Assembly (NCBI GenBank): GCA_964354655.1
Contig: CAYHAL010000002.1
Coordinates: forward strand, 5,680-69,679
Source: an uncultured Dehalococcoidales bacterium
GTDB lineage: Bacteria > Chloroflexota > Dehalococcoidia > Dehalococcoidales > E44-bin46
Reading direction: 5' to 3'
DNA: 64,000 nt
A model generated the notes under the pieces. It ran no database searches. It saw only the letters and a program-made list of their open reading frames with translations, and was not told the DNA's origin. Of this stretch, positions 34,306 through 40,383 are shown in pieces. Position numbers and translations under genes: made by a program. Each line of letters starts with the position of its first letter. Position 1 is the stretch's first letter.

Positions 34306-35457
34306 CTAAATAATGCTGCTTAATGCCTGAAACGTCTTCCTCTCTATTTGAAAGCATCTTACAATACTTTGCTGCACATCAGATAGAAACTCAGGAGTTT
34401 TCTCCAAATCTTTTACCGCCGACATCATCAAGCTATCTAACTCTACATTAATCTGCTTCATGGCTACTAAGGCACTTGGACCCTGCTCTTCAAATAGGCG
34501 GTTCTTTTCCCACATTAGCTCTCTCATCTTTTTTAGATTGGGCCAGGAATCGGGCATTAACCCCGAGGCAATCTTACTCCAGACAGCTGCCGATTCCCTC
34601 AGCATTTCGGCTACTTCTTTTAGCGCTGGCTGGTTTATAATTAAGCTGGCTTCTTCCAGAAACTGGGCATACATAGAGCGAAAGGCACTGCCACCAGTAC
34701 CGCCTGTTTCTATATAGATAAAACCGTTCATCAACGCCCCCAATAGATTAACCCCCTTAAACTGTTCAGGCCATCTCACCACCAGCTTTGACCACTTTTC
34801 CATCCCGGCAAGTCCAATGTTTTTCATTGGCGGCTTCAGCATATTCTGGCAGCATTCCCGAATGCTCTTTCTAATGCCTTGTTCCAAGTTGGCTACTTTC
34901 GAAGGATAACTTATCTTAACCAGCCTATGTTTAGGCGGGAAGGGAGGAAATTTTGACCCTCGTGCCTTGGCTAAATCATCTATACTTACGGTTACCGGGT
35001 TTCTTCCCCGGTCATAGATATAAACCTCACCCCTTGCCTCATCCAGACCAAAGACAACAAAAACATGCCCGCCGAAGTGAGCCACCTCAGGCATAGCGAA
35101 ATAAGGCAGGTAAGCCATATCGCCATAAACAACCGCCGGCTCACCAGCACCAAGTAGTGCCTTTAATTCCTCATATCCCCTTTTGGAACTAGAAGTCTCG
35201 CTAATGGTCGCATCAGCACCAATTCGGCGGCAGATATTGGTGGAGAAATCAGTACTTTCCCCAGAACGTCCGCCGACAAACGGGCTCGGCATCTTCCTCA
35301 CATACCAGTAGATAAAACCAACTCCCCCACCTAACCCCAAAAGCATTTCCTCTGATAGACAGAGCCCATGATAATCCAGCACCCTCTTTAATGCCGTGGT
35401 CTCACAATGCTTCCCGATAAATGGCCTGAACCCTTCAACCATTAAACTCTCTGCCAT
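34306..35457 (-). CDS. BtrH_N-like (papain-fold) domain plus DUF4872-like protein
   Basis: 383 aa. The N-terminus GKHCETTALKRVLDYHGLCLSEEMLLGLGGGVGFIYW matches the pattern I recall for the butirosin BtrH N-terminal domain. Assignment is from memory of the family, not from a search. Confidence 0.5.
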   Translation of the reverse strand: MAESLMVEGFRPFIGKHCETTALKRVLDYHGLCLSEEMLLGLGGGVGFIYWYVRKMPSPFVGGRSGESTDFSTNICRRIGADATISETSSSKRGYEELKALLGAGEPAVVYGDMAYLPYFAMPEVAHFGGHVFVVFGLDEARGEVYIYDRGRNPVTVSIDDLAKARGSKFPPFPPKHRLVKISYPSKVANLEQGIRKSIRECCQNMLKPPMKNIGLAGMEKWSKLVVRWPEQFKGVNLLGALMNGFIYIETGGTGGSAFRSMYAQFLEEASLIINQPALKEVAEMLRESAAVWSKIASGLMPDSWPNLKKMRELMWEKNRLFEEQGPSALVAMKQINVELDSLMMSAVKDLEKTPEFLSDVQQSIVRCFQIERKTFQALSSII

Positions 35458-35459
35458 GA

Positions 35460-35963
35460 TTATTTCTCAAGTGTAGTTTCAATATAGCTCAGGATTTCCT
35501 CCTCCCTAGCTGCCATGAGAAGCTTTAGCTCAGGCTTTTCATCCTCATATCCCAGGACATGAAGCACACCATGAATGATAAGAATGGCTATTTCCCGTTT
35601 TATTGGATGTCCATGCTCCTCAGCCTGTATCACGGCTTGAGGAAAGGAAATGACCACCTCACCAAGGTGTAACACCCCATCAGGAGGCGCAACAAAAGGA
35701 GGAGCCCCTCCAGTAGGTAGCATAGAAAAGGCTAGCACATCTGTAGGCTCATCCCTGCCTAAGTAGCTTCGATTTAGCTGCTGCACCCTTTCCTGAGTGG
35801 CAATAACCAGACCCAGCTCCACATTAGAGCTAACACCATGAGCCATGAGAACCTGCTCGGCTACGCCCTGCAGCCAGCTCACCTCAGGGCACCCCTCAAA
35901 TTCACCGTCAATTAGAACACTTATTTCCACAATCGCTTCGTGCCACCCATCATAGCACACCAT
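35460..35963 (-). CDS. ybeY: Endoribonuclease YbeY (rRNA maturation factor)
   Basis: C-terminal HGVLHVLGYEDE zinc motif. The 223-aa ORF-track version extends over the divergent gene at 36100. The start is more likely ATG at 35963 or GTG at 35930. Confidence 0.8.
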   Translation of the reverse strand: MVCYDGWHEAIVEISVLIDGEFEGCPEVSWLQGVAEQVLMAHGVSSNVELGLVIATQERVQQLNRSYLGRDEPTDVLAFSMLPTGGAPPFVAPPDGVLHLGEVVISFPQAVIQAEEHGHPIKREIAILIIHGVLHVLGYEDEKPELKLLMAAREEEILSYIETTLEK

Positions 35964-36099: not shown

Positions 36100-36318
36100 A
36101 TGGAAGAAAAAGCGAAAGAGAGACATGCCATTTTGAGTAAGCCCCTTCCCGTTATTTTGGATGAGATTGAGGAGGCGGCTGAAGATGCCAGAAAAGCCGC
36201 CGATGAAGCCAGGTTGGCTGGAGAGAAGGCGGCTCAGGATGTTATGAGGAGATTGAGGGTGTTATTTCTAAAAATGGCTAAGGATATTACCGAGGAGTTG
36301 GGCGAGACAAAGAAGTAA
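36100..36318 (+). CDS. Hypothetical coiled-coil protein (72 aa)
   Basis: Strong SD AAAGGAGGA lies 6 nt before the ATG. Charged helical sequence EEAAEDARKAADEARLAGEKAAQD. Confidence 0.5.
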   Translation: MEEKAKERHAILSKPLPVILDEIEEAAEDARKAADEARLAGEKAAQDVMRRLRVLFLKMAKDITEELGETKK

Positions 36319-36356: not shown

Positions 36357-36448
36357 GGAGGGATCGCATAGTGGCCTAGTGCGGGCGCCTGCTAAGCGCT
36401 TGCCCTGGGAAACCGGGGTCGTGGGTTCGAATCCCACTCCCTCCGCCA
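36357..36448 (+). tRNA. tRNA-Ser (anticodon GCU), CCA encoded
   Basis: Acceptor GGAGGGA/TCCCTCC, 3-bp D stem GCA/TGC, anticodon loop CTGCTAA, long variable arm, T arm GTGGG-TTCGAAT-CCCAC, discriminator G plus CCA. Confidence 0.9.
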
Positions 36449-36478
36449 AAGGTGAAAATTTAATCTTGAGAAAGAGAA

Positions 36479-37039
36479 ATGGCATATCAAATTTTTGTCT
36501 CTCATACAAAAGAGGACGTAGAATTTTGTGATATGTTCGATAGAGCATGTGCAAGGGTAGGACTCAAGGCTTTCCGCTCAGAGTTCGAAACTATACAGTT
36601 ACCGCAGTGGAAAACCATTAAAGAAGCTATGGACAAATCTATAGCTATGTTCCTACTTGTAGGGAAACAGCTTGTGGCCCACCAAGCGTCTCCGACTCCC
36701 GATTGGAAATACACACAGAATTGGATCGCTTATGAAACGGGCCTAGCATGTGAAAGAGGCATTGATGTGTGGGTTTATTGTGATAATGTCGATATAAATT
36801 TCCCCGTCCCATATTTCAATAATTATGCACTTTATGGAATGCGGGAAAGGGAAAACTTTGAAGTTCTAAAGGGAATACTCACGAGATATAATAGCGGAGA
36901 AACTTTCCCTGCGCCAACTTGGGGTAGAGGTACATATTGTTCTCATAAAGAGTGCGGAATCAAGTTTAATCTACATTCCGCGCTACCCGCAGGGACGACT
37001 ATAAAATGTCCTCAGTGCTTAAGAGATAATATCTATTAA
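36479..37039 (+). CDS. TIR-like domain protein with C-terminal zinc ribbon
   Basis: 186 aa. IFVSHTKED start, then ...W..I.EAMDKS......V......S.W...E (NWIAYETGLA), matching the bacterial TIR_2/DUF1863 layout. C-terminal CSHKEC...CPQC. Visibly AT-richer than its neighbours. Lies 30 nt after the tRNA-Ser. Confidence 0.5.
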   Translation: MAYQIFVSHTKEDVEFCDMFDRACARVGLKAFRSEFETIQLPQWKTIKEAMDKSIAMFLLVGKQLVAHQASPTPDWKYTQNWIAYETGLACERGIDVWVYCDNVDINFPVPYFNNYALYGMRERENFEVLKGILTRYNSGETFPAPTWGRGTYCSHKECGIKFNLHSALPAGTTIKCPQCLRDNIY

Positions 37040-37097
37040 GGAGGGTTTTCTCGTCAAATGGCTTAAGTAGAAAGTTACGCCAAATATGAAGTAGTAT

Positions 37098-37122
37098 GCC
37101 CCTGAAGAAGGGGCTTATTTTA
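37098..37122 (+). terminator. Rho-independent terminator after the TIR-like gene
   Basis: GCCCCT-gaaga-AGGGGC followed by TTATTTTA. Confidence 0.6.
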
Positions 37123-37143
37123 TCACACTAAGAGTAAGAAACC

Positions 37144-38400
37144 ATGCCTAAATATTATATCTGGACTATTGGCTGTCAGATGAATAAGGCTGAATCGGAG
37201 CGCCTTGGTAGCTACCTTGAGCTACTAGGACTTCAGGCTACAGCTACCACCGAGGAAGCTGATTTAATCGTGCTTAATAGTTGCGTGGTGCGGCAGAGTG
37301 CCGAGAGCCGAGTCATTAACAAGCTCGGTGCCCTTAAACCACTAAAAAGGTTACGCCCAAACTTAACCATTGCTGTTACCGGTTGCTTGGTAAACTCTAA
37401 GGTTGACCAGCTTAGCCAAAGCTTCCCTCACGTTGACTATTTTTTCAAGCCGGGGGAATATCCACCATGGCTAGAAAAACAAGGTAATCTTCATACCGTA
37501 GTCCCCTTACACCCTTCACCAAGCACCTTCGTGCCCATTATCCAGGGTTGTAATAACTTCTGCTCCTATTGCATTGTCCCCTACCGTCGTGGCAGAGAAA
37601 GAAGCCGCCCGGTAGCTGAAATAGTCTGCGAGGTTAAACAGCTGGTGCACCGTGGAGTAAAAGAGGTAACCTTACTGGGACAAAATGTGGACTCATATGG
37701 GCACGACCTGCCCTACCAACCAAACCTAGCCGACCTACTAACTGAGCTAAATACCATAGATGGATTAGCCCGCATACGCTTCCTGACCAACCACCCCAAG
37801 GACATGAGCCCCAGGCTCATTGAAGCCGCAGCCCATCTGGATAAAGTCTGTGAGCACATAAGTCTCCCCGTTCAGTCAGGTAGCAATGAAACCCTGAAGG
37901 CAATGAGACGGGGCTATACGGTAGAAGATTACCGTTACCTGGTCGCACAAATACGCAGTAAGATACCAGGGGTAGCCCTGAGCACCGATGTCATTGTCGG
38001 CTTCCCAACAGAAACCGAAGAGCAGTTCCAACAAACCTTTGACCTGCTCTCTGAACTCAGACCGGATACCGTTCATGTCGCCGCCTATTCACCAAGACCC
38101 GGGACTATTGCCGCCAGAAGATTTGCCAATAATATCCCTCCGACTGAGAAAAAGCAGCGACTAAATAAGATTGAGCAGCTTCAGCAGAGCATCGCCGCTG
38201 AAATTAACCGCCAGCTATTAGGCAAGACGGTTGAGGTTCTAGTAGAAGACCAAAAAAAAGGCAAGTGGTACGGTCGAACCAGAACCGGTAAACTGGTATT
38301 CTTTACTGACACCAATGACTGCCTGGGACAACTGGTAAAAGTCAAGATTGAGCACACCAGTCCCTGGTCACTACAGGGTAAAATTAAGACTGGTAGTTAG
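37144..38400 (+). CDS. miaB: tRNA-2-methylthio-N6-dimethylallyladenosine synthase (MiaB-type methylthiotransferase)
   Basis: 418 aa. UPF0004 N-domain ([14 protein letters not shown]), radical-SAM CNNFCSYC, and a C-terminal TRAM-like domain. Confidence 0.8.
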
Positions 38401-38402
38401 CA

Positions 38403-39314
38403 ATGAGCGACTTAGAAGAAATTAAAGAAAAGATAGCCGCACTGAAAAGGGAGCTAGGGGCAGTTATCGTTGCCCACAATTATCAGCGACCCGAGATTCA
38501 GGATATAGCTGACTTTGTCGGCGACTCCCTAGAGTTAGCCCGTCAATGCGTTGAGGTAGAAGCCCAGACCATTGTCTTCTGCGGCGTGCATTTTATGGCT
38601 GAAACCGCCGCCATCCTTAACCCCGAGCGCACCGTTATGCTGGCAGAAGGTAGTGCCGGCTGCCCGTTAGCCGATATGATTGATATTGAAGGGTTAAGAC
38701 AATGGAAGCAAAGATACCCTAAGGCAGCAGTCATCAGCTATGTCAATTCATCAGCCGAGGTCAAGGCTGAAAGCGATATTTGCTGCACCTCGGCTAATGG
38801 GGTCAAGGTGGTGGAATCGGTAGCTAATGATGACATACTCTTTGTCCCTGACCAGAACCTCGGGCACTACATTTCAACCCAAACCAAAAAGAATATCATC
38901 CTTTACCCCGGATTTTGCTATGTTCACCACCGCATTACGCCTAAGCAACTAAAACTGGCAAAAAGGCTACACCCTGACGCCCAAGTATTAGTTCACCCTG
39001 AGTGCCGACCTGAAGTAATAGCTTTGGCTGACGCTGCCCTCAGCACCTCACAGATGCTCCACTATGCCAAGGCATCGCCAAATAACAGCTTCATTATTGG
39101 CACCGAGGCAGGCATACTTCACGGCTTACGCCAGCAGAACCCGGGAAAGTCCTTCTACCTAATCTCAAGGGGGCAAATCTGCGCCGATATGAAAAAGACA
39201 ACCCTAGAAACACTGGCACGGACCATGGAGCTAAGACAGAATATAGTAACTGTCCCCGAAGAGATAAGACTAAAGGCAAAACAAGCCATCGACCGCATGC
39301 TGACTATTAGTTAG
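38403..39314 (+). CDS. nadA: Quinolinate synthase NadA
   Basis: 303 aa. Motifs: VAHNYQ, FCGVHFMAETA, YVNSSAEVKA and HPEC. Confidence 0.9.
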   Translation: MSDLEEIKEKIAALKRELGAVIVAHNYQRPEIQDIADFVGDSLELARQCVEVEAQTIVFCGVHFMAETAAILNPERTVMLAEGSAGCPLADMIDIEGLRQWKQRYPKAAVISYVNSSAEVKAESDICCTSANGVKVVESVANDDILFVPDQNLGHYISTQTKKNIILYPGFCYVHHRITPKQLKLAKRLHPDAQVLVHPECRPEVIALADAALSTSQMLHYAKASPNNSFIIGTEAGILHGLRQQNPGKSFYLISRGQICADMKKTTLETLARTMELRQNIVTVPEEIRLKAKQAIDRMLTIS

Positions 39315-39315
39315 A

Positions 39316-39512
39316 GAAAGTCAAAGAGAGGCTAAGCCTTTCTTATATAACTAGTTTCCCCTCTCCTTACTCAAAATAGTAGTCAAGGGGAGTTTAAGAG
39401 GGGCTTCGCCCCTCTAAATAAATTTTCTCCCCCTTCCCCTTATCAAGGGGAAGGGGAAAAAGGGGATAGGGTTTTCTAAACAAGAACTACAGGGGGTGAG
39501 GTTGATAAATAA
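39316..39512. repeat. Mosaic hairpin repeat element, copy D (short, rearranged)
   Basis: It opens with an inverted internal unit (GTCAAAGAGAGGCTAAGCCTTTCTTATATAAC). Then come AGAGGGGCTTCGCCCCTCT and hairpin CCCCCTTCCCCTTATCAAGGGGAAGGGG plus AAAAAGGGGATAGGG. It ends with GGGGGTGAGGTTGATAAATAA, which contains the nadC start codon. Confidence 0.85.
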
Positions 39513-40383
39513 ATTCCAAATACCTCAAGAACAGATTGACAGCATTATAGACCTTGCTTTAGCTGAGGATATAAGCCACGGTGATATCACCAGCGAGGGG
39601 CTAATACCACCTGAGCTCCAGGGGAAGGCGTCCATACTGGCTAAGGCAGAAGGTATAATCGCTGGTGGTGAGGTAACCAAAAGGGTGTTTCTGAAGGTTG
39701 ACCCGTCACTCAAGGTTGAACTGCTGATTAAAGACGGAGCCAGGGTTAAACCTGGAGACATAGTCGCCACCATCTTCGGTAATGTAATAAGCATCCTCAA
39801 AGCCGAGCGGGTAGCCCTCAATTTCCTGCAGAGGCTCAGTGGCATCGCTTCACTGACAGCCAAATTCATAGCCAAAACAAAAGGGCTCAAGGTAAAAATT
39901 ACCGATACCCGCAAGACCACCCCCGGTCTCAGGTTATTGGAAAAGTATGCCGTTCGCATCGGCGGCGGACAAAACCACCGCTTCCACCTTGGTGATGGTA
40001 TCCTGATTAAGGATAATCACCTCGCCGCACTTCGCGCCCTGGGCATGAATATAAAAGATATTGTAGCTAAGGCTAAACAGAATGCCCCCCAGGGGGTGAA
40101 GGTTGAGGTTGAAGCCAGCACTATTCAGGAAGCCCTTGATGCCACTGAAGCCGGGGCTGATATCATTATGCTGGATAACATGAGCCCTGATGAAATGCGC
40201 CGGGTAGTAAGCTTAATCCCAAGTGGGGTTAAGATTGAAGCCTCGGGAGGTATTAACCTAGATAATGTCCGCGCTGCGGCTATGGCTGGGGTTGATTTTA
40301 TCTCTATCGGTGCCCTCACTCACTCCGCCAAGGCTCTAGACATCAGCCTTGAGCTTGAACCCCAGACCCTTAAGCTAATCTAG
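39496..40383 (+). CDS. nadC: Nicotinate-nucleotide pyrophosphorylase (carboxylating) NadC
   Basis: 295 aa. Motifs: ALAEDISHGDITS, ERVALNFLQRLSGIAS, DTRKTTPG and IKDNH. The start is GTG at 39496 or TTG at 39502; both lie inside the repeat terminus. Confidence 0.9.
   Translation: MRLINKFQIPQEQIDSIIDLALAEDISHGDITSEGLIPPELQGKASILAKAEGIIAGGEVTKRVFLKVDPSLKVELLIKDGARVKPGDIVATIFGNVISILKAERVALNFLQRLSGIASLTAKFIAKTKGLKVKITDTRKTTPGLRLLEKYAVRIGGGQNHRFHLGDGILIKDNHLAALRALGMNIKDIVAKAKQNAPQGVKVEVEASTIQEALDATEAGADIIMLDNMSPDEMRRVVSLIPSGVKIEASGGINLDNVRAAAMAGVDFISIGALTHSAKALDISLELEPQTLKLI

Follow-up and report, generated by a model that had tools for sequence, protein, structure and literature searches.

The window analysed here is a stretch of 64,000 nucleotides (nt) from an uncultured Dehalococcoidales bacterium (assembly GCA_964354655.1, contig CAYHAL010000002.1), and the element of interest is a single gene inserted between a tRNA gene and the core gene miaB. 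This gene, referred to as ORF X (ORF, open reading frame), lies at 36479..37039 on the forward strand (ATG start, stop codon included) and encodes a protein of 186 amino acids (aa) in which a TIR-like domain is followed by a zinc ribbon. With about even confidence, ORF X is interpreted as a trigger-dependent anti-phage module of the abortive-infection kind, in which one protein would deplete nicotinamide adenine dinucleotide (NAD+) and the ribbon would act as the sensor or assembly element. The copy present in the window is a C-terminally truncated allele.

The domain topology of ORF X in an alignment-based AlphaFold2 (AF2) model (predicted local distance difference test, pLDDT, 91.1; predicted template modelling score, pTM, 0.89) is β4-9, α14-27, β30-35, α43-52, β54-61, α74-93, β96-101, within an α/β domain that spans residues 1 to ~140 (36479..36898, +) and is followed by a three-stranded ribbon whose strands have a pLDDT of ~95. 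When the model is compared with the PDB by Foldseek, the top matches are TIR domains (flax L6, SPARTA TIR-APAZ, RUN1, BtpA, AbTir, and SARM1, with E-values of 7.5e-5 to 1e-3), of which RUN1, SARM1, AbTir, and SPARTA are, we take it, known NADases. The predicted catalytic glutamate is found in the helix following strand C, where it is present as E86 (codon 36734-36736, +) in a W82-x3-E86 motif within helix 74-93. At the level of Pfam profiles, TIR_2 is reached at E<=1 by 43/43 family members (best E 3.6e-6), and DUF4062 by 31/43, below the gathering score. One distant member, P0197, lies above the ThsB_TIR cut-off (23.0 vs. 21.2 bits) and another, P0205, just under it, and two other distant members fall just under the cut-off of CAP12-PCTIR_TIR. 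When the PDB was searched at the sequence level, neither the protein nor the family profile retrieved a TIR domain, and the matches obtained were noise (TFIIIA zinc fingers, influenza PA). We therefore regard the N-terminal domain as a divergent TIR-like domain of the STIR clan (DUF4062/TIR_2/ThsB-like) that keeps the position of the catalytic glutamate.

The members of this family are nearly all 180-220 aa long; they form 327 clusters at 90% identity, and a family-profile search yields 407 representatives at 50% identity. Among 43 close homologues 38 positions are invariant, including F6, H9, T10, D13, W82, and E86 in the TIR-like domain and C154, C159, C177, and C180 further downstream. A set of 48 relatives at 26-45% identity keeps F6, H9, D13, T79, W82, E86, G88, A90, and P111, with E86 conserved in at least 90% of them. 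The C-terminal zinc ribbon (~aa 150-186, 36926..37036, +) is delimited by the strands of the AF2 model and by the four cysteines (codons 36938-40, 36953-55, 37007-09, and 37016-18, +), which are invariant in the distant as well as in the close homologues; some family members also give weak zinc-ribbon Pfam matches. The ribbon is always present, and its fusion to the TIR-like domain is constant across ~400 clusters of ~190-aa proteins. The original prediction, made from the letters alone, had proposed TIR/DUF1863-type motifs with a conserved glutamate position, a TIR-like fold, and a C-terminal zinc ribbon, and all of these are borne out by the alignments, the model, and the Foldseek search. 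Longer “fusion” homologues (P0128, P0129, P0268, and P0263) were considered and set aside, as they add no informative domain. P0205 bears a cupredoxin domain, and P0135 has a weak match to a cold-shock domain under the cut-off.

Two preprints from 2026 describe single-gene defence systems that couple a DUF4062 core, a TIR-like NADase, to a C-terminal auxiliary (AUX) domain (bioRxiv 10.64898/2026.06.25.731849; 10.64898/2026.05.01.722283). In Evangelion, defence is abolished by F11A, by E87A, and by truncation of the AUX domain, the Eva01 protein also requires W162, and wild-type Eva01 lowers NAD+ on infection (bioRxiv 10.64898/2026.06.25.731849). In Swarozyc, the DUF4062 protein KpSwz is a biochemically demonstrated NADase that requires E97 and its AUX domain, is activated by the phage portal, and acts by abortive infection (bioRxiv 10.64898/2026.05.01.722283). 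The ORF X family profile (A4) was aligned by hhalign with the Eva01 sequence, taken as the DUF4062 gene of plasmid pMW2 (Staphylococcus aureus). The alignment has a probability of 96.8% (E 2.7e-10, 96 columns), places X residues 2-105 on Eva01 residues 7-107, and pairs F6 with F11 and E86 with E87, so that the aligned positions include both residues whose substitution abolishes Evangelion defence.

The insertion site of ORF X is anchored on the left by tRNA-Ser(GCU) (36357..36448, +; ARAGORN, Rfam tRNA 54 bits), which encodes its CCA and is the sole tRNA that ARAGORN finds in the window. ORF X starts 30 nt past the 3′ end of this tRNA, exactly as originally described, and the intervening leader (36449..36478, +) carries a purine-rich ribosome-binding stretch. 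The length and the sequence of the leader are kept in five further loci (L005, L017, L061, L088, and L141), all of which share the order tRNA-Ser-X-miaB. Comparison with empty loci (L134, L081, L069, L043, and others) places the inserted DNA at approximately 36457..37090 (+), an extent of ~634 nt, and all six X-bearing tRNA-Ser loci share a conserved sequence at the right junction. The low G+C content noted at first sight is also real: ORF X has 41.2% G+C vs. a window mean of 48.8%, which corresponds to the 1.7th percentile of all 561-nt windows, and its G+C at third codon positions (GC3) is 36%, with 46-54% in the neighbouring genes.

Metagenome contigs were scanned with a 32-nt core of the tRNA, and the resulting loci, numbering at least 120, were classed by tblastn. 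The site is empty in 59 of them, with the start of miaB within ~130 nt of the tRNA end, and ORF X is present in 3. Another insert precedes miaB in 23 loci, no miaB N-terminus is found downstream in 18 despite at least 400 nt after the tRNA, and 17 are too short to classify. The closest relative of the window among the loci listed, L134, has a MiaB that is 88% identical and an empty site. ORF X is a true islet, a polymorphic insertion at a tRNA; it is not universal in relatives, which agrees with the acquired gene at a tRNA hot-spot that had been proposed. In a neighbor-joining tree of MiaB, the X-bearing loci (the window, L005, L017, and L088) are scattered, the window pairing with the empty L134, L005 with the empty L081, and L088 with the empty L069; such scatter implies that X was gained, or lost, more than once. 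For the window and L005, ORF X has a synonymous divergence of 0.55 and MiaB one of 1.10, a halving that hints at exchange among relatives, although codon bias could depress the value.

The original prediction had given ORF X its own terminator at 37098..37122 (+), and this part has to be revised. The element found there by scanning, a G+C-rich hairpin (37098-37114) with a T-run, recurs in the empty sites, where the same hairpin stands 10-15 nt after the tRNA, and in L005 and L017 it shows compensatory changes. Judged by this recurrence, it is the resident terminator of tRNA-Ser and was not brought by ORF X. Because the hairpin directly follows the tRNA in the empty sites, the gene must have been inserted between the tRNA and the resident terminator. 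A scan finds no promoter-like site between the tRNA and the ATG of ORF X, and since only 30 nt are available there, transcription probably starts at the tRNA promoter and reads through into the gene.

A repeat search finds a weak, imperfect direct repeat that exactly brackets the insert, with 11/13 identity between the left copy CGCCAAAGGTGAA (36444..36456, +; the tRNA 3′ end plus 8 nt) and the right copy CGCCAAATATGAA (37078..37090, +; just 5′ of the terminator). As an attachment site or a target-site duplication this repeat was rejected as non-significant, since 52/500 shuffles score as well. No repeat flanks ORF X in the loci where it is linked to metK, and no integrase is found among the window ORFs (ORF list, Pfam).

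In a pattern-limited scan of 185,579 species genomes, the family gave 18 matches. The bacterial hosts are Dehalococcoidia, a “delta proteobacterium” metagenome-assembled genome (MAG), Omnitrophota, and WOR-3, and the archaeal hosts are Bathyarchaeota, Methanoperedens, Alkanophaga, Thermoplasmatales, and GoM-Arc1. Intact copies of X evolve with a ratio of non-synonymous to synonymous substitution (dN/dS) of 0.17-0.31 vs. 0.09-0.14 for MiaB, and the gene is therefore under purifying selection and functional where it is intact. X is AT-richer than its flanks in 21/21 loci, whose hosts have 35-62% G+C, and the difference amounts to 0.4-27.7 points. Such lasting AT-richness points either to ongoing exchange out of an AT-rich pool or to selection for poor codons, as in toxic genes. 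Across the same 21 loci there is no conserved partner gene apart from lineage-specific housekeeping synteny, and no ThsA-like, SIR2, Macro, or SLOG neighbour is found in them or in the 64-kb window; PADLOC likewise gives no match to ThsA or SIR2 in 63 window ORFs or 84 homologue neighbours. The earlier statements that no ThsA-like partner, integrase, or clear attachment repeat is present, and that the gene stands in a minimal or orphan arrangement, are upheld by these searches; for this arrangement, published analogues now exist in Evangelion and Swarozyc.

Another arrangement, ahcY-metK-X, is common to four loci (L004, L010, L012, and L015), with X located 5-22 nt past metK and flanks of 48-62% G+C. 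A terminator hairpin (AAGAGGGGC...GCCCCTCTT) lies 3′ of X in L004, L010, and L012, and none is evident in L015, where X has 34.5% G+C vs. 62% in the flanks. The AAGAGGGGC...GCCCCTCTT hairpin is also found 3′ of X in L013, in which the upstream side is lost at the contig end. Non-coding ends common to the tRNA-linked and the metK-linked copies were looked for and none were seen.

In the proposed mechanism, the TIR-like domain would be the effector, and depletion of NAD+ would starve the infected cell. The zinc ribbon would serve for sensing or assembly, in the manner of the “auxiliary” domain required by the Evangelion and Swarozyc proteins. The gene itself is a horizontally spread, AT-rich cassette of ~634 nt with neither a promoter nor a terminator of its own; in this lineage it lies between tRNA-Ser(GCU) and the terminator of that tRNA and is probably expressed through transcription from the tRNA promoter.

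Several observations weigh against an anti-phage module of this kind. The window protein stays below the Pfam cut-offs for both TIR_2 (13.8 vs. 28 bits, E 0.085) and DUF4062 (14.4 vs. 24.7 bits, E 0.044), has no match in NCBIfam, and finds nothing significant in PADLOC, where its best matches (SpbK, PDC-S66) reach only E ~0.05, and nothing meaningful in PHROGs. The TM-scores of the Foldseek matches are modest (0.4-0.5), and the TIR domains, although first, are mixed with generic flavodoxin-like folds. The hhalign match ends at Eva01 residue 107; nothing in ORF X matches Eva01 108-177, and the Q/W/E motif with W162, which Eva01 has where core and AUX domain meet, has no counterpart. The ~55% identity of X across the bacterial and archaeal domains is unusually high for an immune sensor. 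Outside the tRNA hot-spot, X resides among housekeeping genes (ahcY-metK, ribosomal proteins, PGM) and not in defence islands, and within sub-clades its divergence keeps pace with that of adjacent genes, as in a resident gene (76% identity for X against 80% for MiaB, and 62-80% against 73-80% for MetK). As X diverges about as fast as these neighbours, the insertions are old within sub-clades, where the gene was passed on together with its flanks, and ORF X is not a very recent arrival. Finally, four copies of the gene, including that of the window, carry lesions in their reading frames.

The lesion in the window allele is a 1-nt T insertion at 37036/37037, which creates the stop at 37037-37039 and removes the last 10 residues. 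Translation and comparison of alleles locate the insertion and the out-of-frame ancestral tail at 37036..37070 (+), in which the +1 frame (37038-37070) still encodes KEGFLVKWLK and a stop. An intact allele from a sister sample (P0270, 196 aa) is otherwise identical and ends in this same tail, and in a 161-nt alignment of the window (36990-37150), L001, and L144 that single T is the only difference. The truncated allele is present in at least three assemblies and is therefore not an obvious sequencing error. It spares the whole TIR-like domain and all four cysteines, and the tail that it removes includes a conserved K-G-F; many distant family members naturally end at the truncation point. The window allele may be weakened by the loss of 10 residues. 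Of the other three frameshifted copies, that of L017 (6001-6583) combines the frameshift with a 15-nt deletion, that of L088 has a +1 insertion, and that of L022 (6001-6617) comes from a Methanosarcinales GoM-Arc1 MAG. Recurrent broken copies suggest frequent decay or counter-selection of the family.

The conservation and the neighbourhoods just described would also suit a non-immune enzyme, metabolic or regulatory, that acts on nucleotides or nucleosides in anaerobes, for example a nucleoside deoxyribosyltransferase (NDT)-like N-glycosidase or an enzyme of NAD+/ADP-ribose turnover, acquired for its benefit to life in sediment. Such a protein would account for the strong purifying selection, the high conservation across domains, and the housekeeping, co-directional neighbourhoods, including ahcY-metK-X in four genomes. 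A fold search against viral structures (BFVD) is led, weakly, by nucleoside 2-deoxyribosyltransferases (E ~1e-3, TM 0.40-0.47), and no viral contig carries X. However, none of the 43 members has a Pfam match to NDT (Nuc_deoxyrib_tr), and the distribution is patchy, with the few matches of the pattern-limited scan and a presence or absence that differs between closest relatives. The recurrent frame-disrupting lesions, the AT-richness in every host, and a junction that otherwise gathers restriction and nuclease genes fit such an enzyme poorly as well, and we regard it as unlikely. The search of IMG/VR, in which no relative of ORF X is found among 2.9 million viral contigs, also leaves a phage origin or an anti-defence role of ORF X unsupported, and both were rejected.

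The absence of neighbouring partners bears on a different immune role, in which ORF X would be an orphan ThsB-like sensor that makes a signalling nucleotide (a cyclic ADP-ribose isomer or a His-ADPR-like product) for an effector encoded elsewhere. In size (~190 aa) and in its TIR layout, which stands alone, ORF X is like ThsB, conservation falls on the DUF1863-type motifs, and P0197 reaches the ThsB_TIR gathering score. By contrast, none of the neighbour types sought, whether ThsA-like, SIR2, Macro, or SLOG, accompanies the gene in the 21 loci or the window, transfer of a single gene between domains is hard to square with an unlinked partner, and ThsB has nothing equivalent to the obligate zinc-ribbon fusion. 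Taken together, these points make an orphan sensor quite improbable. It is very unlikely that ORF X is a selfish or decaying passenger, that is, a toxic TIR-like gene held low by AT-rich codons or a functionless remnant being lost: the loss of the K-G-F tail in the window, the frameshifts in L017, L088, and L022, the low GC3 everywhere, and the lack of a promoter of its own would fit, but intact copies are under selection (dN/dS 0.17-0.31), and the truncated allele, found in at least three assemblies, keeps the TIR-like domain and the four cysteines and ends where many distant members do.

The interpretation of ORF X as a trigger-dependent NAD+-depleting module can be extended into a joint reading that is speculative and, as a whole, rather doubtful. 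The family of ORF X would then provide the smallest immune sensor-effector of the TIR type that is self-sufficient, and the first such system to serve both bacteria and archaea (Bathyarchaeia, anaerobic methanotrophic archaea (ANME)/Methanoperedens, Alkanophaga). Its vehicle would be a cassette, promoter-less and permanently AT-rich, that settles after the 3′ end of a strongly transcribed gene (tRNA-Ser, metK) but before the terminator of that gene and borrows both transcription signals, and the zinc ribbon would sense the trigger directly, e.g., a viral nucleic acid or protein.

If the defence reading is true, the family is a reduced form of the TIR-like NADase defence by a single protein that was first reported in 2026; its sensor domain is different and minimal, and its hosts range from bacteria to the archaea of anoxic sediments. 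To our knowledge, few defence systems are known experimentally in anoxic-sediment bacteria and archaea. A protein of 190 residues with an invariant glutamate and a four-cysteine ribbon lends itself readily to biochemical and structural work, and it could reveal the minimum that a TIR-type enzyme needs for switching on.

The tRNA-Ser(GCU)/miaB junction is a variable hot-spot in Dehalococcoidia-type contigs, and the cargo that other loci carry there is diverse. A DpnI-type restriction enzyme is assigned by Pfam in L060, and matching 256-aa ORFs in L032 and L137 are DpnI look-alikes by sequence inspection only. An N4/N6 methylase accompanies a MutH/Sau3AI-like nuclease in L112, a Dam-class methylase accompanies a 451-aa protein of unknown kind in L108, and a ParB_N-MT-A70 methylase is found with two further ORFs (137 and 125 aa) in L104. 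Other inserts encode an HNH nuclease (L084), a GIY-YIG nuclease of 81 aa (L127), an Imm5-like protein (L068), and a Schlafen/AlbA_2 protein (L124). The remaining cargo is metabolic or unclassified: DUF1801 (3 loci), GrpB, hydrolases, and PEMT. Two or three restriction-modification or methylase sets are among the cargo. In L127, over the tRNA 3′ end and ~420 nt downstream, the GIY-YIG gene lies between two perfect 30-nt direct copies of CCACTCCCTCCGCCAGCCTGCGCTAAGGCT, a repeat that holds the tRNA 3′ end; this is clearly a target duplication, in contrast to the weak repeat at ORF X. The insert of L104 (~2.3 kb) has ~19-nt inverted terminal repeats (ATTATCCCTTGACAACAAG and its complement) and a 10-nt duplication, AAGTAATATA, and looks like a small transposable unit. 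In Dehalococcoidia, the locus documents a clean insertion hot-spot, at single-gene resolution, that lies between a tRNA and the terminator of that tRNA. ORF X, restriction enzymes, and homing-type nucleases take one another's place at this junction, which offers a route to further small defence genes in uncultured lineages.

By Pfam, the neighbours of ORF X in the window include ybeY, miaB, nadA, and nadC, together with an ORF of 72 aa. The core gene miaB (UPF0004, radical SAM, and TRAM; 37144..38400, +) forms the right flank, and the core gene ybeY (YbeY; 35460..35900, -) forms the left flank; its place upstream of the tRNA is kept in many loci (tblastn). Between ybeY and the tRNA lies the 72-aa ORF (36100-36318, +), which is charged, has no Pfam match, is 92% conserved in L134, and probably encodes a real small protein. 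The nadA and nadC genes of de novo NAD+ synthesis (38403-40383) lie directly 3′ of miaB, at most 1.4 kb from the putatively NAD+-consuming ORF X. This closeness is probably coincidental, because empty sites likewise have miaB after the tRNA, and a functional link of ORF X to miaB or nadA/nadC was rejected on the same ground, given the 59 loci that have miaB after the tRNA and lack X. Adjoining ybeY, a gene at 34306-35457 (-) encodes a 383-aa BtrH_N + DUF4872 protein (butirosin-biosynthesis BtrH-like peptidase fold), which is unusual for a core neighbourhood. At E<=1e-8, the PADLOC matches among the 63 window ORFs are mad2 (3 ORFs), mad3 (2), mad8 (2), AriA (2), IetA, TRIP13, PDC-S33, and ATPase-Toprim_I-B, probably generic ATPases of the ABC/AAA kind and methylase-type proteins.

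As an insertion, ORF X resembles tRNA-linked islands in its place directly 3′ of a tRNA, its atypical composition, its presence/absence polymorphism, and the alternative cargo of the site. It differs from them in having no integrase and only a non-significant 13-nt imperfect repeat, and in being a single promoter-less gene, ~634 nt as an insert, that stands upstream of the tRNA's own terminator. As a protein, it is, like ThsB of Thoeris, TIR-like, small, and stand-alone and has motifs of the SH-x-x-D and W-x3-E types, a likeness that extends to the ThsB_TIR match of the distant member P0197. By contrast, no ThsA partner is nearby, and the fusion to a zinc ribbon is obligate.

The resemblance to Swarozyc, judged from the published description of KpSwz, lies in the TIR-like core and putative sensor domain within one polypeptide, the catalytic glutamate in an equivalent region, and a patchy distribution of the horizontal-transfer type that includes some archaea. 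However, KpSwz has a helical stalk and an AUX domain of helix-turn-helix (HTH)/winged-helix type that wraps the portal, whereas ORF X has only a ~40-aa zinc ribbon of different fold, and relatives of KpSwz are often located in defence islands, whereas ORF X is mostly alone among housekeeping genes. With Evangelion, ORF X shares the one-gene format, a core that is homologous by profile, the aligned N-terminal aromatic residue (F6/F11) and glutamate (E86/E87), and horizontal spread. The differences are that ORF X, at 186-196 aa, has ~60% of the 324 aa of Eva01, that its auxiliary part is a four-cysteine zinc ribbon with no alignment to the C-terminal region of Eva01, that it falls under the DUF4062 Pfam cut-off, and that it is chromosomal in anaerobic Chloroflexota and archaea, whereas Evangelion is carried on plasmids. 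Because of its size, the zinc ribbon, the missing W162 segment, the sub-threshold hidden Markov model scores, and the different hosts, ORF X is best filed as akin to the Evangelion/Swarozyc kind, as a variant of it rather than a member.

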